Source: Marsupella aquatica (lineage: Eukaryota > Plantae > Marchantiophyta). Taken from it: a stretch of DNA of 64,000 nt. A model generated the notes under the pieces. The model searched no databases. It saw nothing but the letters and a program-made list of their open reading frames with translations, and had not been told where the DNA came from. Position 1 is the stretch's first letter; every line of letters begins with the position of its first letter. The stretch is taken from contig OZ316894.1 in assembly GCA_973895155.1 (NCBI GenBank), positions 14,523,680 through 14,587,679 of the forward strand, in the 5' to 3' direction. The position numbers and the translations under genes were made by a program. Below, piece after piece: positions 17,263 through 47,732 of the stretch.

Positions 17263-20200
17263 CACTAGTACATTTTTGGCACTTTTTCGATACTCAAAAC
17301 ACGCGTTTCTCAACACGCCCGATACTAAACACAACAGAAAACGTCTGATACTCCCAGCTACGGAACTTCTGATACTACTAACATCAAAAATTATTATCCG
17401 ATATGTTTTGTATCAAAAACTTTATCCAATACCCCGCATATCGGACAATGTCCAAAACATCCTGTATCGCAAATTGAGAGCCGACATGTTTTTCAGACGT
17501 CCGATGATAATAGTATCGAAAGCTAATTCCGATAGGTTTGGTTTTGGACATTTACCAATACAAGTATTATCGGACATATTTTTGCGATACTAGTTACAAC
17601 GGAAATCATTTGCGAAGGCTGAGTTATCGGTTACTATCCGTTGAAATTGCTATCAGACCCCTCCTCGACTGCGGGCTTAAGCGTCCGATTTGTGGAGTAT
17701 TGGATAGTGGCTTCCGATTGTTATAGTATCGGAAAATCCGATACTTTGAGGATGGGCTCAGGGGTCTCACTATATGGGGACCTCCCCATCGTCTGCGACG
17801 TTTTTAGGCCTTGGACCCCCTAAAATGTAAGAAAAAAAATTTATTTTTTAACCCCTATAAAGTTGGAATATTCTTGGAATATTCTAAATTTTGGATTAAA
17901 AAGACCCTAATGTTCTTTTAAGTCTCAAAATTGGATTTAAAAGACCCTATTGTTCTTCTACAAAAATTCTTAAGTCTTCCCTTAGAACCAATAAAATGAC
18001 CCTATCCTTCGTCGCACGTGATATGCCATTTTTGTGGAAGTGAAACCCCCGAGAGGATGGGAAGGGGTTTTTTGCTTTGGCAGTACTGATGTGTGTCCGA
18101 TATGTTTCCGATGTTATTTGAATGGGATATGGTATGGGACTTTAGTGTTTTACAATGTCTAGGTTGCATGGAATTAATGGATTCAGATATGGGGCATACT
18201 TTAAGCAATAGATATGTATACTGCATGAAATTGTGGACAATGAGAAAAATTGTAGAATGCCGATAAAAAGATAGTGCTGGTAAAAATATACATGAAGATG
18301 GTGGGGTCTACAATTTATACTAACTCGTGGGGGGTATGTCTCTATCTTCCACTACAACTACATTGGGTCTCTCTTGGACTATGGACCGTGATCTGGGAAT
18401 ATACGACATGACAATGGACCACTTGGGGTCATTGGGATAGGGTAGGTAAAAGCATTGCTCAAGGTGATGTGGGAAGGCAAAGGGATCTGAGGACCTCCAA
18501 TTGGAACTGATGACACTATTTGCGGATGTCTTCAAACGAGTAAAACCGCATGCATCATCTTCACAAGTACGATTGTGGCCTACAAGATTCATCTTGAACC
18601 ATTTGCACTTGAATACCACTTCCTCCAAAGTAGTATGTGCATGGTACTTCACTGTTAGGATCTCCTCAATCTTCCCATAATGGGCCACGATGGAGCGAAT
18701 GGGATTCATGTCTGACATGCTACTCTGGGAATCTTGGGTGAACCAACCCATCACCCCACAATCCTGTGTAGCTGCCCTCTTCTCATCAAGTTGTTCCACA
18801 CGAAAATGTCTCCCCTTTGACCACATGGCAGTCCGAGTCATGACTATAAGTAGTGGACCATGAACCAAGGTACAAAGTTTATCTGTCACGTTTGGGTAGT
18901 GTAATACACTCTCCCCGGTACCCACCAGGGCATCCACTTCTAACAACTTCTCCTTCGTGTATGGGTGAAACTTGGGAAATAACCGTGGGCGTCGACTGTT
19001 TTGCTTCTCCTCCTCATAAAATGTTGTCCACTCCCCGACAACCTCGGGTGATTTATACAACATAAATGTTGTGAGCTATAAACGCTCTGCTAAGCCTATG
19101 AGACGCTCTCCAGATGCCCCAGTGAGTCTATCATCCTCGTAGTCAGCCTCTCGTGCCGCCTCATCTATCCATCCCCTAGGAGCACTAGGATCTAGTGTGG
19201 CAACTATGTTTGTACATTAAAACATACTCTCTGCTCCAAGATGACGCTCCGCAATGCTACCTTCCACCCTAGTGCGATTAAAGACATATGACTTCATCAC
19301 CCCCATATAACGCTCTACCCAATACATCCATTGACAATGTACTGGGCCTGCAATTGCAACCTCGCGCACTAAATGTATGAGGAAATGAACCTGACCATCA
19401 AAGAATGAGGGAGGGAGTGCCTTCTCCAACTTGCAGACAACCTCTACTCCAAATATCTCCATAGCAACAATGTCATCCTCCTGTACCTCCTTTTGACATA
19501 CCCATCTTAAGAGCTTACCCAATGACCAAAGGGCATCACGAAGTTCCTCACTACCCAATCCAATAATAGCAATTGGAAGAACATGTTCAAGCAACCGATG
19601 ATAATCATGTGTCTTCAAGAAAGATGGCCATTTTGGAGAATCCTCCCCCCCAAATGCCTTCCGAAGATTGGTACCATAACCTATGGGAAACCTCATCAAC
19701 CCAATACGTCTGCGAAACTCAATGCGCTCTACCCTTGTCAAAACCCAAGGATGGATGCTAGGGGGAGCACCAGGGGGTCCAAAGATGGCCAAAAACCCAA
19801 AAGACCATGCATCCCCATCTCCTCACAACTTTCTCTCCAATTGTTATTTTTCTCCCCATATAGATGGCGAATCAATGATTTCCCCACATTCCCCTCAATG
19901 TGCATAGGGTCTAACAAGTGATTAATGGGCATATCTGACCAATATGGCAATTGTGACAATGCAGACAAACGGGTCATGCCACATCTGAATAATGGTAATG
20001 GATCACTCGGATCCTAAACTCTCCCCCATACCTCTCTCCAATATGCTGGATCCTTCCGCTGAGGTTGAGGACGAATATCAGGTTGGCCCTCATCAGTATC
20101 ATAAAGGAATGGATCACTCCTCCAAGGATGGTCTGGTGGAAGATATTTAGTATGACCAATGTAAACAATTTTTTGCAGAGTATATACTTGACTTGGGCCT

Positions 20201-21917
20201 GGCCACCCCCTCCAAATCGGGTCCACGTGTAGAGCAAGCTCGATAGCCTGATGTTTGCAATCCATAAACATATCCAAACCCTGCCCAGTGCATAGAAAAC
20301 ACATTCATAAAATAAGGTTCATCAAGGCAAAAATCTGCATAATTGCAATTAAATACAAGGTTTAGGTACTAGAGGAAATAAGGGTTTACCATACCTGGTA
20401 AATCATGCATGGTCCACATAAGGATGGCCTTTAGAGTAAATATGCGGGATAAACCTCGTGTGTTGTGACGTCCATCATAACAATCCACTCCTCTCCACAG
20501 TTGTATCAACTCATCAATCAATGGCTGCAAGTACACATCAATCTTTTTAACTTGCTTAGGACCCGGAATAATCATGGAGAGTAGTAGGTGACCTTTCTTC
20601 ATGGCCATCCAAGGAGGGATGTTGTAGTTTGTCAACACTATTGGCCACACCGAATATGGTTTGGCTTTTCCTGTCAATGCAAAAGGGCTGATACCGTCTG
20701 CTGCCAAGCCTAGTCGAACATGTCGTGGGTCAATTTTGAACTCTCCCCATCTATCCTCTACAAATTGATTGGCAGGAGAGTCAACCATCATCCGCATGGC
20801 ACTAGAGGGTACAGCCATATCAGAACAATTTTGTGAGTGCCATACCATCATCTCAGCCAACTATGCACATCGGAATTGATGTCGCAATCGAGAGATAAGA
20901 GGAAAGTACCTCATAACCTTTTGCGGTACCTTCCCCGTCAACATGTCATCACGGTACCGTGGCTTCTGACATTTAGGACATGTAGTGGCATTTTCATGCT
21001 CACCCCTAAAAAGAATGCAATCATCCACACATGCATGTATCACCTCATACTTCAGGCCAATGGACCTCAACACATGTTTAGCCTCTTTCCAAGAGGCTGG
21101 CAATGCGTTGCCTACTGGCAAAATACGATCATGCAAGGTACGGAAAACATCATCCAAAAGTAGATTGCTTGCCCCATGTCTTTGCTGCAAGTTGAGCAAC
21201 AACATTATTGATGAGAGCCGAGATAACCTACTCCCCTCGAATATGCGAGTACGGGCATGACGTTGCGCCTCCTCCCATTGCTTGTCTTGGGACCCCCTAG
21301 AAGGATGTGGATGACTAGTCCTTTCATGGGTTGAACCATTGTCCTCCAAACCAATGTCATTGTGATCATCATAGAATTGGTCCATGAGCTCATCCATGGC
21401 CCTCTCCTCATCAAGATGGTCTTGGATAGGATCATCACCATCATGTTGTACCCCATCCTCTTGCCTTTGCGGTTCATGCCCACGGTTGGCCACCATGGCC
21501 TCAACAAGGTGTTGTCGCTAGCTCGTGATATTACCCCAATATCAGGCGTTACATATTGATTCTATCATACAACATCAATTAATTAATCTCATCAACACAT
21601 GCACTGCTGAACAAAATCATTCTCATGTAAACATGTAAAATACTGACATATATATATATACATGTATGTAAGTCCAAGAAACTATCATGGACGACAATGC
21701 AAGGACAATTTTGGTGCATCCCACTCATACTCACACAATAACTCCTCACCAGCTCTAATGGTCCTAACAGCTACTGTCATGATATGGTCATCCATATGTT
21801 TCACAAAATATGGATGTCTAGGTGGACCAAACATTTGAATCCACTCTACATTAGCCTCCAAACCTCCATCTCTACCTGTGGTACTATTGATGTACCCTGC
21901 TAAATTACCGTTCCGAA
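17263..21917. mobile_element. CACTA element 2 (same family as element 1), truncated by Mutator-like copy A
   Basis: CACTAGTACATTTT terminus at 17263 interrupts Gypsy pol; TCCGAT/ATCGGA subterminal motifs run to ~17745. Confidence 0.9.
18320..21561 (-). pseudogene. CACTA TnpD-like transposase (DUF4216/DUF4218/Transposase_21), decayed
   Basis: IHACVDDCILF, RHVRLGLAADG, LMWTMHDLP, LDPMHIEGNV, PPSFFDGQVH, WMYWVERYM, VFKCKWF; clear paralogue of 1-2108. Confidence 0.9.
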
Positions 21918-21927
21918 GGGCATCACC
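21685..21927 (-). pseudogene. 3' remnant of the SET-domain exon in CACTA-2
   Basis: GDALRNGNLAGYINSTTGR...NVEW...DDHIMTVAVRTIRAGEELLCEYEW, homologous to the 3' part of 2218-3180. Confidence 0.82.
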
Positions 21928-22597
21928 ACCGAGATAGGAAACAGGAAAACAGGATTCCTGTTAACAGGAAAACAGGAACTGTTATCAGTAAAGATATGAA
22001 GTTTTTGGCCCATTTTTGATGGAAAGGTAAGACTTGATCGGGTTCCTTGCAACAACAAAATTCACATGCTGTCTCTGTAACTGAATTACTTGTCCACCAT
22101 ATATGCGTAAACCATAGAGTGGGTCCCCCCATACATAGGCTACTGAGGCGAGGCACACTCCAAAAATACCAATCTTAAAAATATCATCGGAATCGGTAAG
22201 GTACTATGTAATAGCGCTAGGCGCTAACAAAAAAACCAAGGGGTTTGAGATGAGACCAAATGGATTGAACGGTGTTCATAAATAAATAATTAAGTACACT
22301 TCAATGAAGTGTGACCTGGAAGGGGAAGATTTATATCCCACGAGAAGAACTCAAATATAGGAAAGTTCACAAACGGAGATTCCGATCGCAAAGATAAGTA
22401 CTGGAAAGCATTCGGACCATAATCAAACAAGATTCACTCAGAAAGGGACAAATTGAAGCTAGCGCCCGACGCTAGCCATATGTTATAACAAAATGTGTAA
22501 AGAAAATGAGTATCTGATTAGGTATCATTGAAAAGATGTGAAACGTTCCAATGCGACAAATCAGTTTGGAGCCGTTGAATGTTACTAAATGTCTAGT

Positions 22598-25500
22598 CTA
22601 TAAGTCCAGAGAATTCTGCCTAGCTAGAATGAGCCTCACCTCACCTACAGTCAGAATTGGCTGACTAGCCAAAGTTGAATCCACCACATCTAGTTTTAGG
22701 ACGTTGGTATACACCCAATAGAGATGCTTGCACGACATGAAGGGCCTACCATGAGAATGGCGATGATAGAAGTCCTCACAAGAACAACATGGGAAAATGC
22801 AAATATGTACCCAATAAGTGTTTGCCGTGCGAAGTCTCTCTTGGGTTTGGATCTGAAATTGTTTGCCCCAAGAGTTCCCGATAGAAACATCAAATTGTTG
22901 AACGAGGGTCATCGACTCCTTGTTTGCAGATTCAATTCTTTTGTTGTGCCCTTGCAAAAGATTTGAACGTGGGATTGTATTTTTACCATTCCTGCTCCAA
23001 AGGCGGATATTTGGCTCAAGGAGATTGATTTTCTCCGGGAAAAGGTTCACATTGATTCGCAAGTCAAAAGGAGATGGAGCAGCCTGACGTCCAGCCTCTG
23101 GATTGACAGCAATCCCTTGCTGAGTCAGGAATTGGACCTTAGCCTTAGAAAGATTAGTTCCTTTCAAAACGGGCAGGCTATGAGGAAATGGGGGAAGATT
23201 CACCACATTACGACGGGGCCGGCTCTTATAGCATGCACTATTGGGACAAAACCAAATCATCTCAGGGTGTGGTTCTCCCCTGAACACGCGATATCCTTTG
23301 ACAACAATGCCAACTACACCATCCATTGACGGGTAACCAACCTTTTTAAGACGATTGCGACAGTCATCTCGATCCAATTTTCCACCAAGAGATCCATTAC
23401 GCTGAGGCCCTGCACCATGTCTCGTCACTCTTCGTAGGTGCCACGCCCCTGGTCGCACATCTGTCTCCAACACAGCTGAGTCATGGACAACCTTTTGGAG
23501 GTTGGGAGGTGCAGACCTTTTTGGAGGTTGGGAGGTTGGGAGGCTGCAGACGACCTTGTTGACCTCCTCCAAGGCGGAGTACTCCAATGTCTGCCTTCTT
23601 CAATTTCACTTTCTGACAGGTCCACAACGCCAATGTCATGGTGAATAGGACCCGATGCAACGGGGGAGAATTCAGTCTTGTTTAAGTTTTTCCTTTTCAT
23701 GCCTCGAGTATTTGGTGATGTTACAAGAATAGTGTCATGCCAATGGGAGTCTTGTGCCGAGATGTTCCCAGAGGCTTGACCTTTCCTCTTCATAGACTTT
23801 GTGGTAACATCCCCATTGAGAGGGCCACTCCTTTCCAGGTCGAATTCAGCCGCACCGGAAAGAAGCATATTGGAAGCATCTTGGAAAAGTTTTGAAGAAC
23901 CTGCCTGGTCTGCCGAACGGAATGCCAATTCCCAAATTGTAGGTCCGGTTCCTCGATTAAGACCTCTCTTATACGCCGTATACACAACAACTTGTGAAAG
24001 AGCCCTATTTTGATCCATCTCACATGCTTCAAATAGACCAGCCTTTTTCTTAGTTTGCCAAGCCTTCATTATGGAATGTGCCGCCTCTGAAGTAGTACAG
24101 TTAGGAATCATAGCGCTTTCCTCTACGCTTTTGTTCTGCATAAAACATTTGGAGCACAGTTTAGGAAATATGGCTTAGTCACTGCATTCAATAAAGAAAC
24201 ATTTGAACCAAATCATTTGGTTAGATTTACGGGTTTAATCAATGCCAGCGCCTGGCGCTACCACCATTCACACTAGAATATGGACAAATACGAGTAACAA
24301 GTGGTTCATAAAACTAGCGCCGGGCGCTAGTATCAAAACTCAGGCAAATATTGGAGTGGAACTAGGACACGGAAGTCACTGGAAATAATGATAGCGCCAA
24401 GCGCTAGTATGACTTTGTTTGATTCCTTCTTTTAAAATGGTGATTCGTGTGTTTACTTGTTTATGGATGTTGAAACTCACCAAACAAATGAAATTTCCCC
24501 ATTGACGCCATCGGACCACCCACCACGCAAGCCAACCTTGGAGCATCCGAAGCTTTCCTGGAACACAATTCCCTGATCTCCACCACATGTCGATTTCCCT
24601 GGAAATTATGTAGACTCCAAGAAATGTTGACGCGTTCCTTAAAGAGTCCCACATCTTCCGGTGCTCTTCTCGTTTTTCTTCCAATACTCCTTTAATTGAA
24701 TGACGATGAAACGATTGATAGAAGTGAAACGCATCCGATCGCTCCTTTTCCGGGTTAGGATGTCCACCAAAAAACATGTTCCGAACAACATTCCATCCAG
24801 CTTGAGCATTGTCAGCCATGAATCCATGGATTACTACGTTGTCTAACCCATTTTCATGGCAAACCTCAATCATCGATTTCCAGGCTTTTTCTAACGACTC
24901 AGAATCTTCAGCTTTCAACTCACATGTGAAGATTGTGCAAAGAGCACGGTAATTGTGATCATAAACGTGAGTGCTAAAAGTTATCCAATCCTTGGTCATT
25001 CTCCTCATCACATCAAAACTAACCCACGCGCCTTCTAGTCAACCTCTAGGTTGCATTTGGCGCAACAAATCAACTCCAAATCCGTGCCCTTTTACTGTCA
25101 TTTTGAAAATATGCGGTCGCTCCTCCTTACAGCCTTGACCTGGCAGCATGTAACGTTGTAGAAATGGAAAGTTTATGCATTTCTGCATTTCCACAAGAAA
25201 CTCTAACTCACCTTTACCTTTTTGGTCTTGCCGAACACTCCAAAAAAGAGATGCAAACTTTTGAGGGGTCGAAACAACCATTAACGACTCCCAAATTTCT
25301 CTTTCCTCCGATTCTCTGATGTCATTGTTGGACACACAGAGAGCCTTCCTTAAAGATCCAGTTATGGCATTCTTCATACCTGATGGTGTGGCAGACGATG
25401 TAGCTTCATGTTGCTTCTTTATGAACTCATGAGCAATATTTTCCGCACCTCGAGAAAAAACTTTACGACTGGGATGCGCATGATTTCCGACATGCACAGC

Positions 25501-26399
25501 AAGACGCGACATATGTTTACATGTATCCGCATCGAGAAGTAATTGCGGGTACATATAAAAAGCATAATTGCTGAACAAGCTTCAGTACAAAAGGGCAATT
25601 GTTGGTAGTAGTGAAAAACTACTCCACCCTCCTCAATAATCTTTCCCACGGTATGTGGCCCCGCAAGTTTGGGTGTCCCATCCCAAGCTTTTGAATTTCT
25701 TCTTCTCTTCCGTAGCAGATAATCACATTTCTGATTTCGACATTCGAGTGCACCGGTACACGTCACTTTACCAAATTCCCAAAACTTTTTAGGTTGGACA
25801 TTCGTAGAAGTTGGAAATATCCGTGTCCAGAAGTAGCAGTCTTTAGGCCTGTCCATGTCACGGAGCCTCGAACCTTTTGATAGCAGACCTTCTGCGGGAG
25901 GCAATTCAAACACAACATTTCCATTGTATTTACTCGGTAGACAATTCACCTGCTCATGAAATCACTTGTTTGGATGAACCGCGACAGTTCACTATGGCCA
26001 GTTGATTTGAGAATGGCATCCATTGCGCTTCGATAGAAGGCCCTGGATTAGCCGATGTTTGCAAATCTACGGCTACCTCCTCCTCTTCACTCTCGGAAAG
26101 GTCAATGAATGGAACCGGATGTCTTTCATTCAGAACGGAATGTTGTCGGAGATTGATATGTATCTCTTTCCAGCGTTGAGGTGCCAAAATCTGACTCCAT
26201 CATCGATATCAAATAGTGTGTCATCTGTCTCCTCGCCAGATGCATGGTCTGGTTTGATGGAATGGATGTCATTGATGGCAACGTCAAATCTTCCACAAAG
26301 ATAGTTCTCACTAACCTGTTTGTACATGTCGGATGAACCTAAAGGGATGCTTACAATCTCCCCAGTATCAGGACGAAGAAGCACGACTGAATTAGACAT
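22598..26399 (-). pseudogene. GCM-like + MULE DDE + SWIM transposase (copy A); intron 24480-24136
   Basis: KVTCTGALECRNQKC...VHVGNHAHP (GCM/WRKY-like Zn module), WVSFDV, GFMADNAQAGWNVVRNMF..AFHFYQS, PNCTTSEAAHS, SWIM CSCEDF..CKHLYWV. Frameshifts present. Confidence 0.8.
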
Positions 26400-27294
26400 T
26401 GCGGGAGAATGATATTAATTTGATAAACAAAGGAACGGAGGAAATAGGAGAACATTACTCGACTTAAGTTAAGTAAACTCATTCTGAACCTCAGAAGATT
26501 ATTGTTTGTAAATGACAAAATGGGTACTAGTCGTTAGGTGCAGACACATAAATGTAGTTTGTCGTTTTGCCAACGACACTACTTACCGGTAACGTGCAAA
26601 AAATGCGATCAGATAATTATTAGCGCCCGACGCTACCATAAAGAAGTACCCGGGTTTCAACTTAGAAACCAGACTGAACATGCTAGCACCAGGCGCTATC
26701 ATTGGGGGACTGTCAAGTCAAAGAGAAATATTTTATTGATTTTGATGGAATTGCTGAAAAAATCAATAAACGTTTCATTTTGTTTTGGAATCGGTACTTC
26801 TTAGGAAAATACAAGGGGTATACATAGCTAGCGCCCAGCGCTGACATAATCTCCTCCCTGTCATCGTCATGTATGAGAGTATTTTTAGTGGTTTTTGATA
26901 CTAGCGTCGGGCGCTAGTATCGATGGAGATGACTTTGGTTTGCGCAACGGTTATATCTAACGGTAACATGTATGAACAAATTCCTTACTTTGTGTTGTTT
27001 TCTGTTAGATTGTTTAACAATACGTTCCCGTTCATTGCTGCATCCACAAATGACTTGAAAGTATACGTTAATTCTACTCATTTCAAACAGTCTCTGGCAC
27101 CTGTCTTTGTTTGGATTGGTCAGTGAGATTCTTTCAATCCTTCTTGTTCTACGTCACATGATGTCAACAGCACTATGATGGAAAAGTTTTAAAGGTTTTT
27201 TGTTGTTCTTTGTGTACGGTAATTTGTTTGGAGCGTGAGGGTAGAGACTGGCTCTGTGTCGTACAGAGACCTTCATGTATTGACATGCTCCACA

Positions 27295-30200
27295 ATGCAA
27301 CCTTCAAGCGCCCCAAGCTCTCCAAGAGGGTATACCACAGTTCCAGAGGAAGATCACGGTCATTGCGAGTCTACACAATCTTTGTTCTCTGGGGCATTTT
27401 ACTCGCGTCGAGTTACAAGGTCAAGCGGAGCAATCACTTCCATCAACGCAACACTACCACACCAGAAGTCCAGAAGGGTCCGAATGGACACGGATAGCAT
27501 GACCGATTACGCGCTGGGAGAGGGCAACAAGGTTGGATTAGGGATGGATGAAGTCATCTCGCGACACATAATGTCATTTGGAAAAGATTTCTGGGGAAAC
27601 GAGAAGGAACCGCCCAGGATTCCGCTTTGTCGGTTGATCCACATGGAGGTAGTGCGGACGCTTCAGAAGGAGAGTGCGTCAATTGAGAAATTGAAAGACT
27701 CGTTCCGAAGTAGTGGCTACAATCCAAGGATTGGAATGCGGTTTTTGTGCAACCGACCAATTCTGATGGTGTGGAGAAAATATGCACTGAGGAGATCAGG
27801 GAGACTTGGGATGCTATTTGGGTTGCTGAGAACGAGAAATTTGAGTTAGAATGCACGACAGATCCAACTTTTACGATCTTGAAAGACAAAATGTTCTTAG
27901 TGTTTGATGGGAATCACCGACTTTACTCGTGGACTATATATGGTCACAAAGGAAAATCCAGACAATGTCAAGTATCATCCCAAAGTTCTCTGCACCATTT
28001 TCAAGGGTGATAAAGCTTCGCAAATTCAGATTGAGGCGGCTATGCACACTGTCAACCAGTAAGTAATTCGGCACAAACTTGTAATTAAACATTTCCGCAA
28101 TCCGTTGCTGTTAAATAAATACTAAAGAGAGTGTTTTTTATGCTAGCGCGTGGCGCTACTAATTTCAAACATGGCCTATTGCAGGTTAGGGCAGGCCGTT
28201 GTTGAACCGTCTTGGATCCTTGACGCAGACAGAATCCGAAGCATTCTCTCTCACGATCTAGAGTACTATAAGTCAATAATTGACAGCGCCAATTATGCAA
28301 AGTTTGAGTATATCAAACAGAAGACTCGAAAACATTCTTGGTACACACGGAAAATGCCTTTGGAAGCTCTTGTTTATATTTTGTGCGAAAACAAAATCAA
28401 AGCTTACATAACCAGTTCAAGATGGACATGGCATTGGCAGCAAGTCAAGGCAGTCCTTGGTTGGCTGATGAGGTCGCAAAGCAACAGTCACTCATGTTGA
28501 AAGAGGCCACCAAAGACTGGTCTACGAAAACATCCAAAATCACTCCTCTTCTTAATCCTGAGTTTGAAGATTTTCTAGGTACTTGTGCAAAGATGTACGT
28601 ATTGATGGAGAAGAACAAGCGAGAGAAAAAAACCCGATTCGGTTGTTTGTACTATGGACCATGCTAGACTATTCACAGCCGTTTTTGCTCTCGATCCAAA
28701 ATTGAGATGCACTTTGCTTGTTGCTCATTGTACTCCAGAGTTGAGAAAACAATTCTTCCACCCTGCCAGTGTGAATGATGATCCAGTGAAGCAGTGGTGT
28801 CACACATGGCAGACCTGGAATACCGTCGAGGGAATCGCAATTGGGATGTTGCAATCTGCAATTTCTGTAGCCATTGAAACACTCCCAATTGATAGGCTTG
28901 CCCATTCAGGGTGTGACTCAGTAGAGGGTCTGATTGAATTATTTCAAGTGAGTTCAGAAGGTATGGGGATCTTGTGAAGGCAAAGTTCTTCAACACCATG
29001 TGGCCATCAAAATACCCTGATAAAGAGGTATATACAGAGAAAAATCAGAAGAGGGCCAAGAGGTATTTGTATTGTTTTTACATATGGATGGAAGTACATT
29101 CCCCGGATGCGCTTTGGGCGTATCCAGCCGCATTTCACAAGTGGATTGTTGCAAAGGAGGGAGATCATGTTGCTGACTTGTATTCGATGTATCCTGCTGA
29201 GGGTAAACTTCCACCACGGGAAATGTCTGAGTGGGAAAGAATTCACTGCCCGTGGTATCTTGACACAGACAAGTGGGATTCACCATTTGACGAAGTGGAG
29301 AAGGATTGGTTTCTTAAACTAGCCAAGTTGCAGATTCTACCCAACATAGTTTTTGAGATGAAGCAAGGGCTCCTGAGCGACGTCGACAAATCATCTACTG
29401 AGTTACAAACAATCTGCGAGACAGTAGTTGTACATGTAGACACGAGCCGCAAGCCGAGAGGGAAAGTGAAAGTAGACACAGCACTGCCAAGTGCATCAAC
29501 GAGATCCGGGAAGAAACATACGTTTCCATTCAAACCCAGTTTAGTTCTTTGCTAGCGCCTGGCGCTACTATTCCTGTACTTCAACCTTAATCCATTTTTT
29601 TTCTTTCTGACACTTATCCCACATTCTATGCAATGTGTGAATAGGTCAAAAGAAGTCGGATGCAGACGCCACTGATGATACAAAGGTTACCCCGGAAGCT
29701 TCAGAAGCAAATACTGGCGCTTTGCCAGATCCACTTAGACCAATTAATTCTGGAAAATCAATTGTACCAGTCGATGCAACGAGTACAAAGAAGAAAAGCA
29801 GGAGGACTCGCGATGTTGGGCAATCAGAAAGGGATTCTCTGGCGGCCACCGGGCTCCAACGTGATGTTGGGAATTTTAAATCCAAGGCATCTCGTCATTG
29901 TTTCGTTGAGACCAGTGTCAGTGAATTAGTGGACAGTGTGTTTAACAAGGAGGAGAAGCCAAAATGGGTTAATGATGCCGAAAAGTGGGGGAAGGACTTA
30001 ATCAAATCGGGATGCCGACTGAAAGGGGTGGTGAGGGGTGGGAAAGAGAGGCCTTTTGGTGTTGACGCTGGTTTTATTTATTTGCCAACTGGGCTAAAAC
30101 CAACTTTGCTTGATAGGAAGGTCCCTAAATGGAACGTTCCCGGCTGTACGCTAGCCCAGTGTTTTTTCCGGGCAATGGATCCCTTTTTGTTGGATGACGG

Positions 30201-31109
30201 AATTATTGCGATACTCCATACAGGGGAGTATGATCAGATTTCACAGGTCATCTCAACATGTCAAGAGTCTAAGAAATTCCAATGTTTGTGTACACATAAT
30301 GTTGTCATGGGGTTCCCCATGTACAAGGCCAAGTCTGATTTGCAGGTAAATCTATTCATCACACTTTCAAAGTTTTGCTAGCGCTAGGCGCTGCTCATTT
30401 TATGTAGTGCTCGATTAGAAATTTTAATCTTTTCCTAGGTACACTACTAATCATACTATTAATTCTTTGCTAGCGCCCGACGCTATTACAATTCTTTGGT
30501 CCTTACTTGTTCATGTTCCCTTTTCAGGTATTCACTTTACGTTTAGATATATTTTGTCGAGTATCATCCAAGGTGAAAGTCCCCAAGGATCCTAAGTTCA
30601 AACCTCTTTCAAGAGCAGAGGATCCCTCTATCACAAATCTGATCGGACTTCCATTTGCGAAGGTGGATACAACTCCAGAGCTTGAATTTGCCGAGAATGC
30701 CAGACTACATCCAGGGTTTATGCAGTATGTTTTGGAACTAATCACGTGTCCCAGAGATATTGTTCTGGATTGGGCTGTAGGTTCTGGGAGTACATTTGTG
30801 GCAGGTGATAATTGTGGTCGATTTGTAATTGGGCTTGAGAATAGGAAGGAGTTCGTTGAAACTACTTCAAAAATATTTCTGGACCTTCTAACTCCCAAAG
30901 TATCTGAGTCCAAAGCCCCTCCGAAGCCTGTGCTTGCAAAACGAAAGAGAGACAAACTTAAATCAATATTAAATTTTGACTCCGAAGATGAGAATGAAGC
31001 AGAAGAGGGGGATGAAGAAGAGGAGGATCCGAACATTCCTAGAGTGTCTTTAACCGGAGAAGATCCGGAATCTAATGGAGGGAGTGACAGCGAAGACTCT
31101 TCTGAGTAA
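27295..31109 (+). pseudogene. ParB/Sulfiredoxin-like domain + helical region + beta-class N6A/N4C DNA-methyltransferase-like domain (copy A)
   Basis: VRTL..IEKLKDSF...GY and MFLVFDGNHRLYSW (~27890-27932); VDAGFIYLPTG..W..FLLDDGIIAILH; HPGFMQYVLELITCPRDIVLDWAVGSGSTFVAGDNCGRFVIGLE. Predicted introns 28059-28184, ~29518-29644 (donor apparently mutated) and 30346-30527. Confidence 0.72.
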
Positions 31110-31723
31110 GAAACTACCGAGTAAGCTCATAAGCTAACCCGGTTTTTATTACGGTCGATTCCCTTCTTCTCTCTTTGATGTCACATTTTTTTTCCTTTTT
31201 TGCAAATATTTTGGCTGTTGACATCAAATCCAATATTCTCCTCCTCAGGTCAGACTGGAATCTTCGCTGGCGTTTCCAACTCAGACGGAAAGTAGCTAGG
31301 CGATATATTGAAACTCCCGAGAAACCATTTGTCTTACCTTCCTATGCTGAAAATGTTGCTAGAAAAGTTGACAGTGTGCCCTAAACTGGGAGAATAAAGG
31401 CTTGAGATTAAGGAGGGGGTCTGATAGAAAATTTATGCGGAACCGATTTGTGGATGATATGGCCAAGAGCGAATTTTTAGACATCGAGGCAGAATCTACC
31501 GATAGGTCCGAATCCCGTGAATCGGAGTGCTCGGATTAACTTGGATCTCTGTTGTTAATTTGGGTGTATTTTTAGTGCAACTATGCTAGCGCCGGGCGCT
31601 ACCCAAATGTATGCCAGAAATACTGTACAATAAAGATATTATATGTCAGTTGTAACCATGGAGTGTCCACTCAAAGTACTCTTTCTATTATAGTAGCGCC
31701 CGGCGCTACTATAATTGTATAAC

Positions 31724-34463
31724 ACACCAAAGCCCCTCTCTTTTCCACCACGCATTACTCCCTTCTCTCTGTCTCTTGACTTTACCAAATCCTTTCCCTA
31801 GGCCTCAACTTTAGTAACCCACATGGGCTTCAGCCCCTTGTTAAATACTGAATTGTAAAATTCATTTAAATTGGACTCCACAAAATAGTGTCGAGAAGAC
31901 CTTCGTTTAAAATGCCTGACATCTCTCTGGAGTCCATAGGAAATAACGTCTCGAGTAGATGATGCTGCTCTGTCCTCACCGGCGCCTCTTTTTTTCTTTT
32001 TCTTAGTGCTAGTTGCATCGATAGGGACAATGGACTTGCCAGCACCATCTAGGGTCACTTGATCCGGGGTTTCTTGAGCTCCAGTGTTTGCCTCCGATGC
32101 CTGAGGAGTTGCATCACTCTTCCCTTTGGCAGCCGGTACCTCCGTGTCAGACTTTTGCCCTCCTGTTAGGCACAAAAACTTGCATGAGTCCAACCTTTTA
32201 GACCAGCGCCAGGCGCTATTAATGAAAGGAATTTCCAATCCTGCATAACCAGCACCAACAAGTAACCAAAAAGTGCTTAGACAACTCACTTTTCTTGAAG
32301 GACCTTGTGGACTCACTTGGTGCAGCTGACTCATTCTTCGCCTTTGCTCTTGGCTTACGGCTTTTGTCAACGTGCATGACAAGAGACTCACAATTCTTTT
32401 GTAACTCAGATGCAGATTCATCAACATCAGACTGTAGACCTTGCTTCATTGCAGACACATAGTTGGCAGGGATTTGGGACTTCTGCAATTTCATGAAGGC
32501 ATCCTTCTCAGCTTTGTCGAACGGCAAATCCCATTTGTTTGTGTCGAGGTACCACGGATAGTGAAGTCTCTCCCACTCCGACAATGAACGTGGTGGAAAC
32601 TTTCCCTCCGATGGGTACATCAAATACAGGTCGGCAAGAGGGTCTCCCTCTTCAATAGATACCCATTTTTGAAATGCAGCAGGGTATACCCATAGAGTGT
32701 CAGGAGATCTAAGCTCCATCCACATGTAAAACCGGTATAGATATCGTTTGGCTCTTTTCCGGTTCCGCTCTGTGTAATCTTCCTTGTCCGCATATTTGGA
32801 AGGCCACAAATTGTTGAAGAATTTTGCCTTCACCAAATCCCCAAAGTTCTTGAATTCATCGAGAATGATCTTCAGCATGGCATCCATTGACTCACATCCA
32901 GACTTTGTGAGATGGTCAGCCGACATCCGGTCAGAAATCTGTTTGAAGGAAGTGTGAAGCATTCCAGTTGCAATTATCTCAACAGAATTCCAAGTATGCC
33001 ATGTATGGCACCACTGCTTCACAGGCTCGTCGTTGACACTTGCAGGATGGAAAAACTGTTTCCGAATCTTAGGAGTGCAGTGGGCTACTAGAAGGGTGCA
33101 CCTCAATTTTGGATCCAGGTATGACACTGCAGTAAACAACCGGGCTCGATCCATGGTGCATACGACTATCTCTGGCTTCTTCTCCCATTTGTTCTTCTCA
33201 GTAACGGGATACATCTCAGCACAGGTTCCCAAATAATCTCCAAAATCTGGATGAAGTAAAGGGGTGATGTTGGTCACTTTGATTGACCAATCTTTGGTCG
33301 CCTCCTTCATCATTGCCTCATGCCTCTTCGTGGTCTCCTCTTTTGATCAAGGCGCACCTTGAGCTTTGGCTAAAGCCATATCAGACTTAAATTGATTTGA
33401 GTAAGACTTGATTTTGTCCACACACAGAATATAGATGAGAGCGTCCTGTGGCATTTTGTGTGTGAACCAAGACCCCTTTCTCGTCTTCTTTCAGATCGCC
33501 TCAAACTTTACCATGTTTGCGCTGTCGATCAGTGGTTTGTAGTGATCAAGATCACGCGACAGAATTTGGGAAATTCTGTCCGCGTCAAGAATCCAGGAAG
33601 GTTCGACGACTGCTTGTCCAAGCCTGGATGAAATGAGAAGGAATTAGTAGCGTCGGACGCTAGCAAAGATTGGGGAATGAACACTTTCGTAAAGCATGTT
33701 TGGTCCAAAATGAATGACAAGGGTAAAAACACTTAACAAATATAACTTACTAGTTCACGGTGTGCATTGCCGCCTCGAGCTCAACTAGCGAACCTCTGTC
33801 ACCATTGAAAATGACGCAAATCACACAAGGATGATACTTCAAGTTGTCCGGATTCTCCCTCGTGACAATTGACCAGGAGTACAATCGATGATTTCCGTCA
33901 AACACACAGAACATTTTATCTTTTAGAATATGGAATGTTGGATCTGCATCACACTCTTCCTCAAACTTCTTGTTCTCTGCAACCTAGATTGGATCCCAAG
34001 AGTCCCGGATCTCGCTGGTGCATATCTGAGGAACTCCATTAGCATTTGCAGGCTGAACGTAGAAAGGCATCCCAATGCGCGAGTTGTACCCTATGACCCA
34101 GAATGATTCTTTCAACTTCTCGATTGACGCACTTTCTTTCTGTAAGGTTTGAACAAGCTCCATGGGGAGCAATCTACAAAGAGGAATTCGAGGTGGCTCC
34201 TTATCAAATCCTCATAAATCCTTCTCGAACGGCAACGCATGCTTTGATATTACCTCGTCCATCGATAAGCCAATGTCACTGACTTCACCCATGGAGACCT
34301 CCTTAGGGTCCATTCTTCCTCTTCTCGACCTTGGGAAGGGCTGTGTAGATTCAGCTTTGGAAGTTGACAGGGACGCAGTCGATCGAGTGACGTGACGGGT
34401 GTATACAGAACCAGCTAACGAAGACTGAGAGGACTCAGAATGACCACCATCAGCCTCCCCCAT
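31724..34463 (-). pseudogene. ParB-like gene (copy B), truncated before the MTase domain
   Basis: PPRIPL, GYNSRIGMPFYVQP, VFDGNHRLYSW, MDRARLFTAV, WPSKY..KRAKRYLY. Introns 33750-33624 and 32289-32163 at the same positions as in copy A. Homology stops at GGKERGFGV. Confidence 0.8.
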
Positions 34464-35504
34464 TCTGATATCACCCAGCCAAAAGATGTTGTGGAGAGGG
34501 ACTCGACCATCTGACAGTGTCGTACGCGCCGTGTAGTTCTTGTGACGATCACCGAGCAGGCTGTACGGGACCAATAAAGGACCCACATACACACTTGACA
34601 AACTTGTACAGTCCGAGGTCTGAGCGCTTAAATGGACTAAATTATCTACAACAGCAATCCCCACCTCGTATTAAGTCACCAATACGATGGACCCAACCAA
34701 TCGATTACAACGGTCAAAAGTACAGATGGCATTCTCCGATTGGACTTTCATCCGAGACAAAAAGAAAAAGGGTTTTGTGAACCTCAATCTATTCTAATAT
34801 TACCGTTGGAAAGTGTCCGTTGGAACCAGAACAATGTCGGTAATTAAAGATAGCGCCAAGCGCTATTATAAAACATACACTCAACTGAATTTGAAAATAC
34901 CGTCTTCCAATAGCGCTCGACACTAGTATCGATAATAATATCTATAAATTTTCAAATTTTGCGTAGATGTCAACCCGCCAACGTTAATAGCGCTCGACGC
35001 TAGTATAGATGTGACGCCAATGACATGGTCCTTATTTTGTAATCTGATTAAGTAGGTTGCTGTATGCAAGGAGTAGCTATTGATATTGCATAACAATTAG
35101 CAAGATGGCAAGAATAAGGGCAATCATGGCGTTAAGAGTAGGGAAATAAAAGCTATGTCGCGGGTGGTCGATGACCATATCTCTTTCAATATGTCACCAA
35201 ATCCGGATATGTAAAGAGCATTGGAAAGATCTGGTCAAGGCGAGTAAAATCGATATAAAATGCTTGGGAAACGGAGGTGTATTAAGGAAGATACGGCCTG
35301 ATTAGTGTGACGGGTTAACTTGTGGCCGGAATTAGCGGATTCGGCTTCAGTTTCGGGTTAACCCAAGCTCGGCCACGGTTTAGCTTAGGTAAACACGGCT
35401 TCAGCTTAGCTCAGGTAAGCACGGCTTCAGCTTAGGCTTAACCCGGGTTCAGATTAGATTGATCTCGGGTTAGACTCGAGTATAATGCTCATCGAGAAAA
35501 GATC

Positions 35505-38500
35505 GTGCCTTTGGCTGTGTATCGGCAGAGTGCAATGGATACAATCTTGAAATCCAAAGGTCATAGTGAATTGTCTCGGTTTATAAGGGGGAGTGATTTT
35601 GTTCATCACGTAGTGCCTAGTCTTCCCACATCTTACAATGGGAATGTGGTTTTTGAGTTACCCCCGGTAGACTGTGTGAACGCGAAAGGTGAACGTTTGA
35701 AAGATATGGGTCGCGGTAAGGATTGTTATTACTGGACTTGGATTGTGAAAAGTCTTCAAATGTTCTTCCGAAGAAAATGTGGGATTTTGGGAAAGTTCAG
35801 TGTACGGGATCGCTGCAATGTCAAAATAATGCTTGTTTGTGGTGGAAAGACAACAAGTTTTGGAAATAATGAGATGTGGGCAAGAACCCCAAAACTTTCG
35901 GGCCCGTTCCGAGTTAGGGAATTGATCTCCAAAGGTGGAGTTGTTTGTCACCATTGCTCCAAACCTCCAATGTGCGTTGAGGCCTGCCCTGCTCTAATGT
36001 TCTACATGTATCCATCTGCGAAAGTTGACGTAAAGTCTTTGGCCCACATGTTGTGACTTGCTGTTCATATGGGATTTCACAATCATCCCAGTCGACGGGT
36101 CTGGTTGAGGGAGGCAAAAAAGGTAGCAAGGTCTCATCTGGAGAAGGGATTCAGTGCAAACCCCATGGCAACCCCAACAGGGATAAAAAACTCTGCCACT
36201 GAGACATTGACAAATACATTTTGCGAGGCCTCTGTTGAAGAAATCTCTCTTGAAGAAGAGAAGGAAATCTGGGAGTCCCTGATGGTCGTCGCATCTCCTT
36301 AGAAGTTTGCATCCGTGTTAAGGAGTGTCCGTCAAGATCAAAAGGGGAAAGGGGAACTGGAATTTCTTGTGAGGATGCAAAAGTGTATCCAACTGCCTTT
36401 GCTTCAGAGGTTCTTGCTCCCTGGTCAAGGCTGCCGAGACGAGAGTGCTCATATCTTTAAAATGACTGTAAAAGGTGACGGTTGTGGTCTGGACCCGCTC
36501 CAAAGAATGAAACCTAGGGGGTCGTTAGAGGGTTCATGGGTAAGTTTTGATGTGATGCATCAAAGCACGACAAATTGGCTTACTTTCAGTGCCCACGTAT
36601 ATGATCATCATTACCGGGAACTTTGCACCATATTCACTTGTGAGCTAAAGGCCGAAGATGCAAAATCTCTGGAGAGAGCCTAGCGTTTGATGCTAGAGGT
36701 TTCCGATGAAAATGGTTTATAGGATGTTACAATTCGGGGATTCATGATGGACAATGCTCAAGCTGGCTGGAATGCTATTCGAAGCATGTTCTTTGACGGC
36801 GTACCCGACCTAGAGGAAGAAAGATCAGATGCCTTTCATTTTTTCCAATCTTTTCATCGTCATTCCCGAGAAGGTGTGAAAGATGGAAAGCACGTAGAGC
36901 ACAAGGAGATGTGGGATCGTCTTTGGAACGCATCAGCTTTCTTGAAAGCGTATCGAATCTCTAGGGAAATTGATGACTGGTGGAGGTCTAGCAATTGTCA
37001 CTCAGGCAAACTTTGGATGCTCCAAGGGTGGTTGTCTTGGTGGGTTGTTCGATGGAGACAATGGGGGAACTTCATAAGACTGGTGAGTTCTAGTCTTTTC
37101 TAGTATGCATTTGCCCATTAATAGCGCTCGACGCTACTAAAACATGCGTGAGACAGCATAGTTCCTTATCTGCAAGAGTAGCGCCAAGTGCTAGTAATCC
37201 ATTTGGCCTATGAGTGATATAAGGACTACCTTTATTTTGTGTTCAACTGTACTTTACATGGAAACATCATCATCAAGTATGGTATACTAGCGCCTGGCGC
37301 TACTATTATTTCCATTGTGTTGCCACTTGTGAGTGCAATTTCTTATATGTACTAAACACTTGCGTGCAATGTTTCAGAGCAAGAGTGCCGAAGAAGCTGG
37401 GATGATTCCAAATTGTACTGGATCGGAATCTAGGCATGTTGGAATGAAAGCATGGCAACAGAAAAAGAAGGTTGGTCTCTTTGAAGGATGCAAAACGGAC
37501 CAAAGTAGAGTTGTTGCTCAAATTGCTGCTTATACGACATACAAAAGGGGATTGAACAGAGGAACTGGCCCAACTATTTTTGAGCTTGCCTTCAGATCGG
37601 CAGACCTGGCGGGGTCACTGCGTCTCTTTGAGGAAGCCACCAATCTTCTCCTGTCAAACGCTGCTGAGTTTGATTTGGAAAGAAGCGTTCCATTGAATGG
37701 GGATGTTGTAACTCAATCTATGAAACAAAAAGGACATGCAACTGGGAACGTCTCGGCAGAAGACTTGCACAGGCATGATACCATCCTTGTTACTTCACCA
37801 AATACAAAAGGTTTGAAAAGGAGAAACCTGCATTCCATTGATTTTGAGAAAATGCCTTCTATGCCTTCAGCCGGTGGAATTGATGGGGTCCATAATTTGT
37901 CCAAAAGCAATACTTCTGAGGAAGTTGTAGTCATTGACACACCTTCGCGACAAGCAACGAGATCCTCTGTCCCACCAGTGACCCCTGCAAGAACTGTCGA
38001 GACTGCATATTGTTTTTCAGTTTTCCCAATGGAAAGTGAAGTACCTCCCGGTGCCTGGCAATTGCGTTGGACCTCAAAACGGGGTGCAGGTCCAGTGTGT
38101 AACGGAACCCTTGGACGGGGAGGGAGTCATGATGAATGTTGAAATCGAGTAAAGAAGGTAGGCCTTCCGAATCCAGATGGTGTTGTTGCAATTTCTGTGA
38201 GGGGATGTAGAATGTTCAGGGGGCAACCTTATAACGATCAGATATGGTTTTGCCCCAACAACCACTATCACCAAAGCACAACAAGGAGATGAGTCTCGAA
38301 CATTCCCAATGTTCCTTCCCATCTTCCAATTGCCAGAGGAACGAATCTATTTGGAGCAGAGATTCAATTTTTGAAAGAACAAGGACTTATTCTCTCTGAA
38401 GGCCGTGGAGATGAAATCGAAGCACCGTTGTCATCTGCGTTACGGATTGATGTCAATCTTTTCCCAGAGAGGATCAACCTAACTGACCCATGTGTGAGAT

Positions 38501-38904
38501 GCGCTTCAAGGAACGAGAAGAAATGCTTGCAAAGAGTGCATCTTACCCACACCCATTTGAAGAGAATTGAAGCCTCTAAAAAAGAAGTCATGAGCGTCAT
38601 TGGAGAGAGAGAGATCACGAGTGGAAATGCATCGGGGAAACAGTTTTGTATCCGGACCCATGAACATGAGAGATCAGTCACCTCTTACTGGGTTCAGATA
38701 TGTTGTTTCCCATGTTGCTCCTACGAGGATTTCTACCGTCGGCATACTTATCGGAAGCCTTACATGCCTTGCAAACATGTGTATTGGGTGTTCAAGAATG
38801 TGTTCAAACTGGATGTGCACGATTCGACATTATGTAGCCAGCCAATTCTAACGTTGGGAGACGTCCGTTACATACTTGATAGGCAGTTGGGAACAAGAAT
38901 TTAG
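35505..38904 (+). pseudogene. GCM-like + MULE + SWIM transposase (copy B); intron 37083-37377
   Basis: SYNGNVVFELPP, CHHC..C..CPALMFY, GFHNHP, WVSFDV, FMMDNAQAGWNAIRSMF..FHFFQS, PNCTGSESRH, PCCSYEDF..CKHVYW. Confidence 0.8.
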
Positions 38905-39192
38905 ATTGTTGCTTTAACGTTGAACAACTAGAATTGTAGTTTGTCTTTTCTAACGGGCAGAAGTGAGTTGTTTAAGTGCTGTTTTTTTAGTATAATACAA
39001 TACTAGCGTCGGGCGCTAGTATTGTATGACTTGTGTTTTGACTTCATAATTTGTTGCAATATATTGGAGTCCTTGTGTGAAATCGTCAAAAATATTCCTC
39101 TGATGTCGTATAGTGGTGGGCCCCACCACAATGTTGTCCGCACAATTATTGCATATATGGACGCTAAATACCCTGAAGAGAAGAAACTAAAA

Positions 39193-39346
39193 TGCATACA
39201 AGAAAAGAAATACTTGTACGAGAAAACAAAAACTCATACAAGAAAACAGAAACTCGTACGAGTAAATAGATATGCTCATACAAGTAACTTGTTTACTCGT
39301 ACGAGACAAAATTTTGCTTGTACGAGGCAAAATTTTCTCGTATGAG
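39193..39346. repeat. Subterminal array of the 10-bp palindrome CTCGTACGAG (8 units, 20-22 bp period)
   Basis: Units at 39193 (degenerate), 39213, 39233, 39253, 39275, 39296, 39317 and 39337; variants are mostly C>T/G>A. Confidence 0.85.
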
Positions 39347-39385
39347 CATATCTATTTACTATTTGCTATCACGGTGGTTATACCC

Positions 39386-39513: not shown

Positions 39514-40339
39514 CACTAGTAGAAACCGGGGGGTATTTAGACCCCATTAAACGACTATTCAGTACCGTATAGGACTTGGAAACCACTGGGAAGGACTCTA
39601 GTCCTTTATAGGACTGCGAGTCGTATGTTTTGTTACTATAATCAACTGAGTCCTTTATAGAACTGGTTTATAAGTCGTTTAATAGACTGGATTTTCAGTC
39701 TATTTTAGTCTTTGTGTGGGTAGCTTTGGTGAGTCGTTTTTAGTCTTTTATGGGCTGCGATGATGAGTCGTTGGGAACGACTAAAAAGGTTATGGAGGGT
39801 AGTCTTTAAATATACTTTGTGGGGTATGTATAAGTCTTTTATGTCAACTGGATATGAGTGATGAAGACCCCACTATACTACTTGGAATGAACCCACTCTT
39901 GTGCACAAATAACATATTGCATTCATATTTTATTGTGTACTTGGAATGAACTCACTCTATAAGTTCACCATTCATCATGTTAACATTAGAATACATAGTT
40001 TCAGAAAGCCATCTTCTATACCATGTACACTAATATGAATTCACAGATTCAAACTTCATAGACTGCAAAGAAGGTCACAAAGTATTCCTCTATACCATAC
40101 ACACTAATACTGAAATGATAAAATAGATTCAAGTATCATAGACAATCACCATAGAGCCATAGTTTGACATCAATCACTTGTTTCATACATACAGAATTCA
40201 GAAATATCAATGTCACACACAACGTCTCCTTCATCCTCTTTACCAAATGGAAAAATTGGTACAGATATTTCTTGGATCTTTCCAAGGCAATGTCAAAATG
40301 TGACACAATTCACATGATGCTATCTACACTTGCATTCAG

Positions 40340-43300: not shown

Positions 43301-43529
43301 CATCAGGCGTCCCTTGCCAATAACTCTGGCTCCTTCTAGGGTATGGATTATGTGATTTCTCTCTAGCTGCCCACCTACCTGGGACTTGATGAGGGCCCTG
43401 TGCATCTTGCACAGGTGCATTTTTCTGTGAGCCCCCTGCATCTGGGTCTCCATCCATATCCAATCTTTCCTCTTCACCCCACTCTCCAAGCCCCATGTCT
43501 GTCTCCATGTCATCACCCTCTTCCCCCAT
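40340..43529 (-). CDS. CACTA TnpA/Ptta-like second gene, multi-exon, exon structure approximate
   Basis: LKQERHRLK..W..PPP....QWTRLI..F.S...KSELMSNARGKV...GRGSY (Transposase_24-like). C-terminal G..FHGKVVPDDHVVV..V..LPFP..IADAVGSLVLWP. 18-bp GTPGRG repeat at ~42670-42765. Confidence 0.7.
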
Positions 43530-43706
43530 AGCTTCTGCACAGCACCCACAACCAAACAGGGAGAATCAGCACACTAAATTCAAAGTATCAATCAATTTCA
43601 TGCATATCCAACTATCCTAAACATCATTCCAGGCAGCAATTCCCGTTATGTGACTCTGTGCAGGTAGTCATCCTCAACCTCATACTTGCCAATCGCCAGC
43701 TGTTGC

Positions 43707-46700: not shown

Positions 46701-47406
46701 AGGAAGGTCAACAACTCTGTCACAAATATATTGGGAACATTGTGATTGCCACAGATGTTCAACAACAACACGACAAAACCCAGCTTGGAGCAGTTCGACC
46801 CCTCGTAGATAGGATGCAAGCTTCTTTGATGTGTTTTGGGCCCCCAAACACCCACTCCCTCTCTGCTGCACCTTCCCCAATGTCAAAGTCAGGTTGAGCT
46901 TGGCCGTCGCCAATGTGTGGCTGCGGTTCATTGTCCTCTTCTGATTCCACTGTGTCGTAAAAAGCATCAAGGTCTTCAAAAATCTCTTGAACCATTCTTG
47001 GGACATCCATCCCACCGTCCTCAGTGACTGCCTCTGCATCTCCATCTTGGTCATCCACGTTCTCATGTTGGACCCCAGGACCATCCTCTGCACAGTCTAT
47101 GTCCTGCTCTACGTAGTCTCTACGCCTAGCTGTATTAGAATCCACAAAGTCAGCTCTCCACTCTTCATCAGAGGAGTCTTCTTCTACTGGTACATTCCAA
47201 ACCCTCCACCGAGGGTGCCTTTCATGCCGCAGCAGGTGAAGGTGCACAGTGTTCAAACTCAACGACTTGAATCCTTGGCACTGTGTGCATGGGCATCTCA
47301 TCCTCCTACTCCTACCTTGGGCGGCCCGGGCTTGTTCACGCATCCACAATTTAGAATCATGATGCCTAATCCTAAATGGGTTGTGAAGAGGCAACCTTGG
47401 AGCCAT
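43707..47406 (-). pseudogene. CACTA TnpD-like transposase with one apparent frameshift near 46850
   Basis: MRCPCTQC..HL, IDACPDGCVLF, LRHFPLIPRL, FGLSLDGVNPF, IADYPG, DVMHIEKNI, KTHDYH, FPPAFFDVMTH, RWMYPMERYM, EPFVFPSQVEQAFF. Confidence 0.92.
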
Positions 47407-47732
47407 CACTATACACACGCACTCAGCACCCTGTCATTTTATTATGCAAGTGAAAAATACACTTCCTGTTAAGGATTTCACCCCCGACTGTACTTGCCAA
47501 AATACGTAACGTTCCAAAAAAACAAAAAAACAAAAAATATAGGTGCCTGAGTCATGTACCTATTCTCAAGTGAATGAGACAAAATTCCTAAATGTTTGAG
47601 GGTGTCAACTCCTCCGCTGTCCTCACATGTACTGCCTCTGCACGTACATCCATGACCATATCAGAGTCCAATCATGTATAGTCATAGACACAGGTGCCAG
47701 GTGCGAGACCGGTGTGAGATGTCCTCATCTTA

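Follow-up and report, generated by a model that had tools for sequence, protein, structure and literature searches.

A probably non-catalytic methyltransferase-fold protein family of putative Mutator-like elements in a liverwort and the palindromes it may bind

Here we describe a 64,000-nucleotide stretch of contig OZ316894.1 of the liverwort Marsupella aquatica (hereafter the window, whose own numbering is used throughout), in which an amino-methyltransferase-fold domain is encoded towards the 3' end of B1, a gene with five exons (about 27223–31539, plus strand; roughly 1,200 amino acids as the sum of its exons). B1 is divergent from gene A1 (22598–26414, minus strand), which is broken and would encode a Mutator-like element (MULE) transposase with a C-terminal SWIM-like finger recognized by eye. 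The transposase identity is a lead from the ESM Atlas, where the feature search returned MULE transposase clusters at 0.90–0.92 with under 170 shared features; Pfam gave no transposase match for A1. A second unit lies tail to tail with the first. By sequence comparison, it consists of B2 (31724–34670, minus strand), a B1 paralog (64–67% DNA identity) with in-frame stops whose similarity ends just before motif IV of the domain, and A2 (35463–38904, plus strand), a broken A1 paralog (60–71% DNA identity) divergent from B2. Both A–B units are broken, and the block that they form is embedded among CACTA, long terminal repeat (LTR) and long interspersed nuclear element pieces. Neither terminal inverted repeats nor a target duplication of 8–11 bp were found at the candidate ends, which are nested or decayed.

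The first exon of B1 (27223–28060), delineated from the open reading frames (ORFs) and the comparison with B2, carries two frame changes and the peptide DGNHR (27906–27920). Present in both B paralogs, this peptide fits what we take to be the ParB/Srx signature, and no library confirmed it: on the frame-broken ORF pieces, no ParB-like domain was matched in Pfam, PHROGs, NCBIfam, PADLOC or the PDB, nor by tblastn against phages and plasmids. The second exon (28188–29520, boundaries approximate) encodes a middle region without fold assignment (predicted local distance difference test score of 37.8 in a single-sequence fold), and is interrupted by three frame breaks of one base each (near 28408, 28626 and 28938), only one of which sits in a long homopolymer. 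Its differences from B2 are distributed 39/32/97 over the three codon positions of 178 codons. The third exon (29646–30345, 5' boundary approximate) comprises a low-complexity linker followed, from about 29890, by the first half of the methyltransferase-fold domain, and the fourth (30528–31107, 3' boundary approximate) encodes ARLHPG, motif I, GLE and an acidic linker. The last exon (31250–31539), with one frame break, encodes a conserved tail with 49–51% identity to residues 520–617 of P0040, a protein record of the liverwort Calypogeia fissa that also matches the end of exon 2 and the domain. Within this exon, the segment 31381–31536 is closer to P0040 (51%) than the methyltransferase domain is (33–44%), and it ends with RFVDD and an acidic stretch, which may be akin to the short acidic motifs through which chromatin and replication factors dock. 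Altogether, the frame of B1 changes five times before the domain and once in the tail, and this copy is therefore broken. Word-based searches for full-length relatives with the middle region (658–2000 amino acids) and with the domain of the C. fissa record P0010 (794–2265 amino acids) found none, and these are weak negatives.

The domain is split between two separate ORFs. The peptide VDAGFIYLPTG (30061–30093), in which YLPT occupies the motif IV position (30079–30090), lies in the first; the motif I segment DIVLDWAVGSGST (30756–30794) and GRFVIGLE (30816–30839, with GLE at 30831–30839) lie in the second, all on the plus strand. Between them, a GT-AG intron of 182 nucleotides in phase 0 (30346–30527) is predicted from the open spliced frame and from collinearity with three intron-free C. 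fissa records (P0040, P0010 and P0016). The spliced domain, 276 amino acids with no stop, aligns end to end with these three records, with no gap at the junction. The exon with motif I matches the Pfam family N6_N4_Mtase with 33.5 bits (E 5.3e-8; curated cut-off 26.7), and its search against PDB sequences returned 10 matches at E up to 1, with M1.HpyAVI, M.MboIIA and CcrM at the top and M.PvuII among them. The exon with motif IV alone had no Pfam match, and a profile of one of our alignments (A4) had no match among PDB sequences. For motif IV, the register comes from HHalign, in which a profile of 35 family rows was aligned with a profile of six phage beta-class enzymes: the probability was 97.7–98.3% in global and 96.5% in local alignment, and YLPT falls on DLPY/DIPY/DPPY. 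Motif IV precedes motif I, collinearly in P0010, P0016 and P0040, which is the beta-class order, and a W-D element downstream of motif IV is common to the domain and the prokaryotic beta-class enzymes.

A Foldseek search with the model of P0016 ranked CcrM first (E 7.7e-4), and VIA-align gave this model middling Z scores of 5.4–6.2 to beta enzymes, lower than to some RNA methyltransferases. The AlphaFold model of P0016 is confident only over residues 1–150. Among the structure neighbours of an ESM Atlas model, clusters of PF01555 filled all 10 rows. The domain is confirmed as a permuted beta-class, S-adenosylmethionine (SAM)-dependent Rossmann amino-methyltransferase fold (PF01555), and it is a real feature of the locus. 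An earlier sequence-only reading of this DNA had proposed such a fold, with motif IV ahead of motif I, a non-canonical motif IV, and a transposon-borne, intron-containing gene, and on each of these points our searches and the MULE-like neighbour bear it out.

The state of motif IV was then read across the family. A HMMER search over 1.84 billion representatives gave 34 matches; a repetitive, spurious one (P0035) and one that stops before motif IV (P0028) were removed, and two were added from a second search (7 matches), so that 35 rows, including that of the window itself, were aligned. At the first position of motif IV, these rows have A (11), Y (10), F (8), C (3), S (2) and R (1), and none has D or N. 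The second position is L in 31 of the 35, and the third is P in all. The fourth is T in 24 and N in 6, with five single residues in the remainder and no Y, F or W. The family consensus is x-L-P-T/N, and the catalytic motif (D/N/S)-P-P-(Y/F/W) is found in none of the 35 rows. The HPTQKP site of the phage enzymes is also replaced in all four rows that cover it, and the window has ARLHPG there (30699–30716). By contrast with these losses, the motif I pattern D-W-x-x-G-x-G and the acidic motif II GLE are retained in 5–6 rows. The leucine at the second position is probably ancestral, because two of the three phage alignments shown have DLPY or DIPY, and positions 1 and 4 are then the ones whose residues would have been lost. 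The degenerate motif is common to relatives at 26–70% identity, and all six named relatives are from C. fissa.

In a tree of 26 of the 35 rows (nine of under 110 amino acids were dropped), the family lies on one side of a 100/100 branch that separates it from six phage rows, an outgroup too small to name a donor. A tblastn search against phages with the motif IV exon of another family member, P0002, gave no match. The phage beta-class methyltransferases nearest to the domain by tblastn, L002 and L003, include DIPY and DLPY forms and may point to the donor clade. The family may have had an active ancestor.

A domain with neither the D/N/S side chain nor an aromatic residue to stack the base is not expected to transfer methyl groups to N4 or N6. 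In N4CMT, the serine and the carbonyl of the first proline hold the target amine, and the tyrosine stacks the base (PMC10406627); the mutation of SPPY to APPA is reported to abolish the activity (PMC8885841). Since the D/S residue and the tyrosine contact the target base and the APPA mutant is dead, the family has, to judge from its alignment, probably lost ordinary amino-methyltransferase activity.

Variation among sister copies points to selection on this state. The near copies comprise 113 contigs from four runs of two studies. The family can be called many-copied from counts of diverged contigs, 115–380 per run, as contig depth was not taken as copy number. No change is listed at the Y, P and T codons of YLPT in the 113 contigs, and no restoring variant is listed among them. 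Around the motif (30020–30130), 11 of 15 variants are synonymous, against 25–33% expected (p 1e-4 to 2e-3), and in the wider domain this holds for 24 of 36 exonic variants (p 1e-5 or lower) in the best 40 of 228 rows. Because the motif is common to relatives and the sister variation is mostly synonymous, these observations point one way, to a degenerate motif IV that is the family state under purifying selection; decay private to the window copy was rejected on the same two grounds. The consensus sought at motif IV by the sequence-only reading was thereby obtained, and it is non-catalytic. That reading had also pointed out that YLPT lies one base from DLPT. This is correct for the codon itself (TAT to GAT), and the change occurs in no sister copy; as a way back to activity it was rejected.

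The same block holds a second feature. We found 26 dispersed copies of a palindrome, TAGCG-N5-CGCTA (consensus TAGCGCCNGGCGCTA), at up to one mismatch, against 0.31 expected, all of them within 22212–39018; the remainder of the window has none at this threshold. They lie in introns of all four genes, in both A–B spacers and in 3' flanks. The intron between the two halves of the domain holds two copies (30379 and 30471); there is none in the last intron of B1. In all, 24 of the 26 fall outside the coding segments as approximated here, and the other two each carry one mismatch and have atypical centres. No tandem array was found in 22212–39018 among the 20 of 28 repeat families examined. At the junction of the two units (31700–31730), the similarity of B2 runs out ahead of motif IV into the most perfect copy, at 31694, whose symmetry reaches 11 bases or more to each side and which may be a rearrangement point. 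Just to the right of the last palindrome, at 39181–39360, 20-bp tandem repeats are followed by a 30-bp inverted repeat, which may belong to the LTR neighbour or to the element end.

The core of the palindrome recurs in a distant relative. In L001, the only related locus fetched (34% protein identity), two copies of AGCG-N5-CGCT (at 131–143 and 373–385) precede the corresponding exon, an arrangement found in none of 200 shuffles. Since both copies keep the AGCG/CGCT arms with a T-run spacer in place of CCNGG, the comparison suggests that the arms, and not the centre, carry information. A metagenome scan gave a single related locus among 41 pattern matches, and 85 stretches turned up when viral contigs were scanned for the palindrome, with a single match in nearly every one. 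With the motifs masked, the observed/expected ratio of CpG is 0.66 over the block, against 0.31–0.54 in six neighbouring transposon segments, and it reaches 0.86 and 1.07 in the two A–B spacers (23 and 44 CpGs). As a sign of protection, this pattern is suggestive at most.

The catalytic residues are absent in every relative examined, yet the domain is conserved, and therefore its role is likely to be binding rather than methylation. Our favoured reading, which we hold with about as much belief as doubt, is that B1 represents a catalytically dead accessory protein under selection, which would bind the palindromes of its own element and shield that element from host silencing, in the manner of VANC. 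The B protein would dimerize and recognize the two-fold symmetric palindrome, through its putative ParB-like or middle region and/or through the methyltransferase fold. Bound in this way, it would sit on CG- and CHG-rich sites in promoters and introns and, like VANC on VANDAL, either keep the host methylation machinery away or bring in activators, so that the element stays expressed or unmethylated. The SAM pocket may persist in a structural or sensing capacity. Both an inactive reader or shield and an altered chemistry had been suggested from the sequence alone, and the first is now favoured over the second because the motif IV consensus is non-catalytic yet selected.

Several of our own results weigh against this reading. 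At up to 100 bases from a palindrome, the CpG ratio is 0.64, which does not exceed the 0.66 of the whole element, and there is thus no local protection signal. The transposase could be the palindrome binder instead. The retained motif I and acidic motif II residue, seen in 5–6 rows, leave room for chemistry, and the model of P0016 is unreliable at the SAM pocket, since its confident part ends at residue 150. The contig variants are non-independent events, and the 40 rows used for the wider domain are the best-supported subset of the 228. The ParB-like call depends on a five-residue signature for which five libraries and two tblastn searches came back empty. Finally, both window copies are broken, and the linkage of A and B is known from two units in one window.

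The assignment of the palindromes to the transposase leads to the first competing explanation, in which the enzyme is dead, the palindromes are transposase binding sites or intronic RNA hairpins, and the accessory protein serves otherwise, for instance in guiding insertion or, by its acidic tail, in docking on chromatin. A Mutator transposase is reported to activate cognate copies in a sequence-specific manner (10.64898/2026.08.24.746577), and in our block the palindromes also flank and interrupt the transposase-like genes; the absence of a CpG excess beside the palindromes and the unconfirmed ParB-like domain of B1 fit this explanation as well. Against it, the palindromes are internal, in introns and spacers, rather than terminal, no terminal inverted repeat was found, and the ParB-bearing accessory genes described in algae adjoin inverted repeats (bioRxiv 2025.02.11.637652). 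A purely RNA role is not favoured, because the palindrome occurs in intergenic spacers as well as in introns. We regard this explanation as unlikely, if worth keeping in view.

The dead domain could alternatively be the non-catalytic half of a dimer, comparable to METTL14 or to the idle subunit of a beta-class enzyme, which steers or blocks an active amino-methyltransferase of the host or of another element, or it could soak up or sense SAM. Beta-class enzymes are described as dimeric (PMC10406627; PMC6787082), METTL14 is a precedent for disrupted active sites (PMC4738411), and an active N4-cytosine (N4C) enzyme has been reported in a liverwort (bioRxiv 2021.02.12.428880); the preservation of motifs I and II in the family would suit such a role. 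No partner with an intact motif IV was found, however, among the 34 matches of the first search, the 7 of the second or the scanned ORFs of the window, and we consider this explanation improbable.

A third explanation is an active enzyme with altered chemistry, in which the T or N at position 4 and the invariant proline would serve to methylate another base, RNA or protein. Such an enzyme would account for the retained SAM-pocket motifs, for the T or N in 30 and the P in all 35 rows and for the selection on motif IV itself, and unusual strand-4 motifs are reported from other permuted clades (PMC4738411). Yet position 1 drifts among six chemically unlike, mostly hydrophobic residues, unlike a catalytic site; no aromatic residue is available to stack a flipped base, and the HPTQKP site is replaced too. 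We give this explanation little credence. That the motif is mere decay of a formerly active, transposon-borne methyltransferase with no present function would agree with the frameshifts or stops in both window copies and the truncation of B2, but it is largely refuted by the degenerate motif shared with relatives and the mostly synonymous sister variation, and we find it scarcely credible.

The favoured reading, that of a self-binding accessory protein, has counterparts among known transposon systems. Sola1-1_Ec32 of Ectocarpus is reported to carry a gene for a 1104-amino-acid protein with ParB-like and N4C/N6-adenine methyltransferase domains opposite its transposase, and similar proteins are described in green and red algae (PMC12477816). 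The B genes share with it the accessory position on the strand opposite the transposase of a DNA transposon (in two A–B units, the transposase identity being the Atlas lead), the size (1104 amino acids there, about 1,200 estimated for B1), a prokaryote-type amino-methyltransferase domain and a proposed self-binding. They differ in the MULE-like carrier, the land-plant host and a motif IV that is non-catalytic family-wide, whereas methyl transfer is predicted in that report. This is a likeness by description, and the ParB domain of B1 is putative. In red algae, Plavaka elements are reported to carry PAG2 (PF01555 and SET) and PAG3 (ParB-like and 2OG oxygenase), which also occur on Mutator elements of Chondrus (bioRxiv 2025.02.11.637652). 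There, as here, a PF01555 domain is transposon cargo and repeats of the element (inverted repeats in the algae) are proposed self-binding sites. As described, the algal domains sit in two separate genes, each joined to a different partner, and tandem repeat arrays stand beside PAG3, unlike the single dispersed palindromes of our block.

A functional analogy is offered by VANC, whose short target motifs lie in the non-coding sequence of VANDAL (PMC5735166). According to one account (bioRxiv 2025.02.11.637652), no other transposon protein is known that binds its own element and modifies it. VANDAL and the present element each carry an extra gene and a short element-specific motif concentrated in non-coding regions, introns and upstream regions included. 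The VANC motifs are described as asymmetric, fast-changing tandem repeats of 8–9 bases in the same orientation, whereas here the motif is a 15-base palindrome whose core is common to a distant relative. No sequence evidence links VANC and B1, and the likeness would be one of function.

In its fold, its order of motif IV before motif I, its motif I/II region and its W-D element, the domain resembles CcrM, M.MboIIA, M1.HpyAVI, M.PvuII and the phage DLPY/DPPY orphans, from which it differs by the replacement of motif IV positions 1 and 4 and of HPTQKP, by splicing and by its embedding in a large eukaryotic protein. Like N4CMT of bdelloids and MpDN4MT1a/b of Marchantia, it is a eukaryotic beta-class domain of bacterial origin; those two are reported as active host enzymes with SPPY/TSPPY (PMC8885841; bioRxiv 2021.02.12.428880), whereas the B family lacks that motif and is transposon-borne. 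The suggestion that such an element was a vehicle for the rotifer and Marchantia N4C enzymes finds no support in the family, in which none of the 35 rows has SPPY or TSPPY. DIRS1 is an earlier example of a transposon with an inactive amino-methyltransferase domain (PMC4738411). The algal ParB–methyltransferase accessory proteins have already been reported, and B1 appears, from its sequence, to work like a transposon self-binding accessory protein rather than as a member of the active beta-class or SPPY N4C enzymes. A literature search, with most subscription journals outside its reach, did not find such a form in land plants, carried by a MULE, with motif IV non-catalytic throughout the family and a conserved palindrome dispersed in the element.

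Elsewhere in the window, chromatin-domain cargo is common. A CACTA element at 39514–56084, whose ends are identical over 18 bases and flanked by a target duplication of ATT, carries a BRCT ORF (48446–49306, E 1.8e-13) and an ORF with an NSD-like PHD finger (49893–50597) upstream of its transposase; it is strongly CpG-depleted (0.31 over 39514–52000) and splits a stretch that resembles the LTR element at 10070–10435. Two related CACTA elements (1–3180 and 18000–21933; 73% DNA identity) each have a SET-domain ORF beside the transposase, and the second is truncated near 21933, not far from the start of the MULE-like block. A 461-amino-acid ORF without a Pfam match (6122–7507) contains about 3.5 copies of a 189-bp tandem unit (6604–7265) and lies upstream of Copia-like pol ORFs.

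To conclude, the locus pairs a selected, non-catalytic domain with a sharply defined candidate site, so that the idea of self-binding is directly testable. In a broader and more tentative form, which we put forward as possible and somewhat doubtful, liverwort Mutator-like elements would have a self-recognition system made of prokaryotic parts: a dimer combining ParB-like and pseudo-methyltransferase domains would read a parS-like palindrome in promoters and introns and block host silencing, independently of VANC, as the non-catalytic land-plant descendant of the algal self-methylating proteins. The algal ParB–methyltransferase accessory proteins are predictions so far. If binding fails, a conserved pseudo-enzyme family in plant transposons would still stand, with modest importance. 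Our findings also suggest that binding, rather than methyl transfer, is perhaps what land plants kept.

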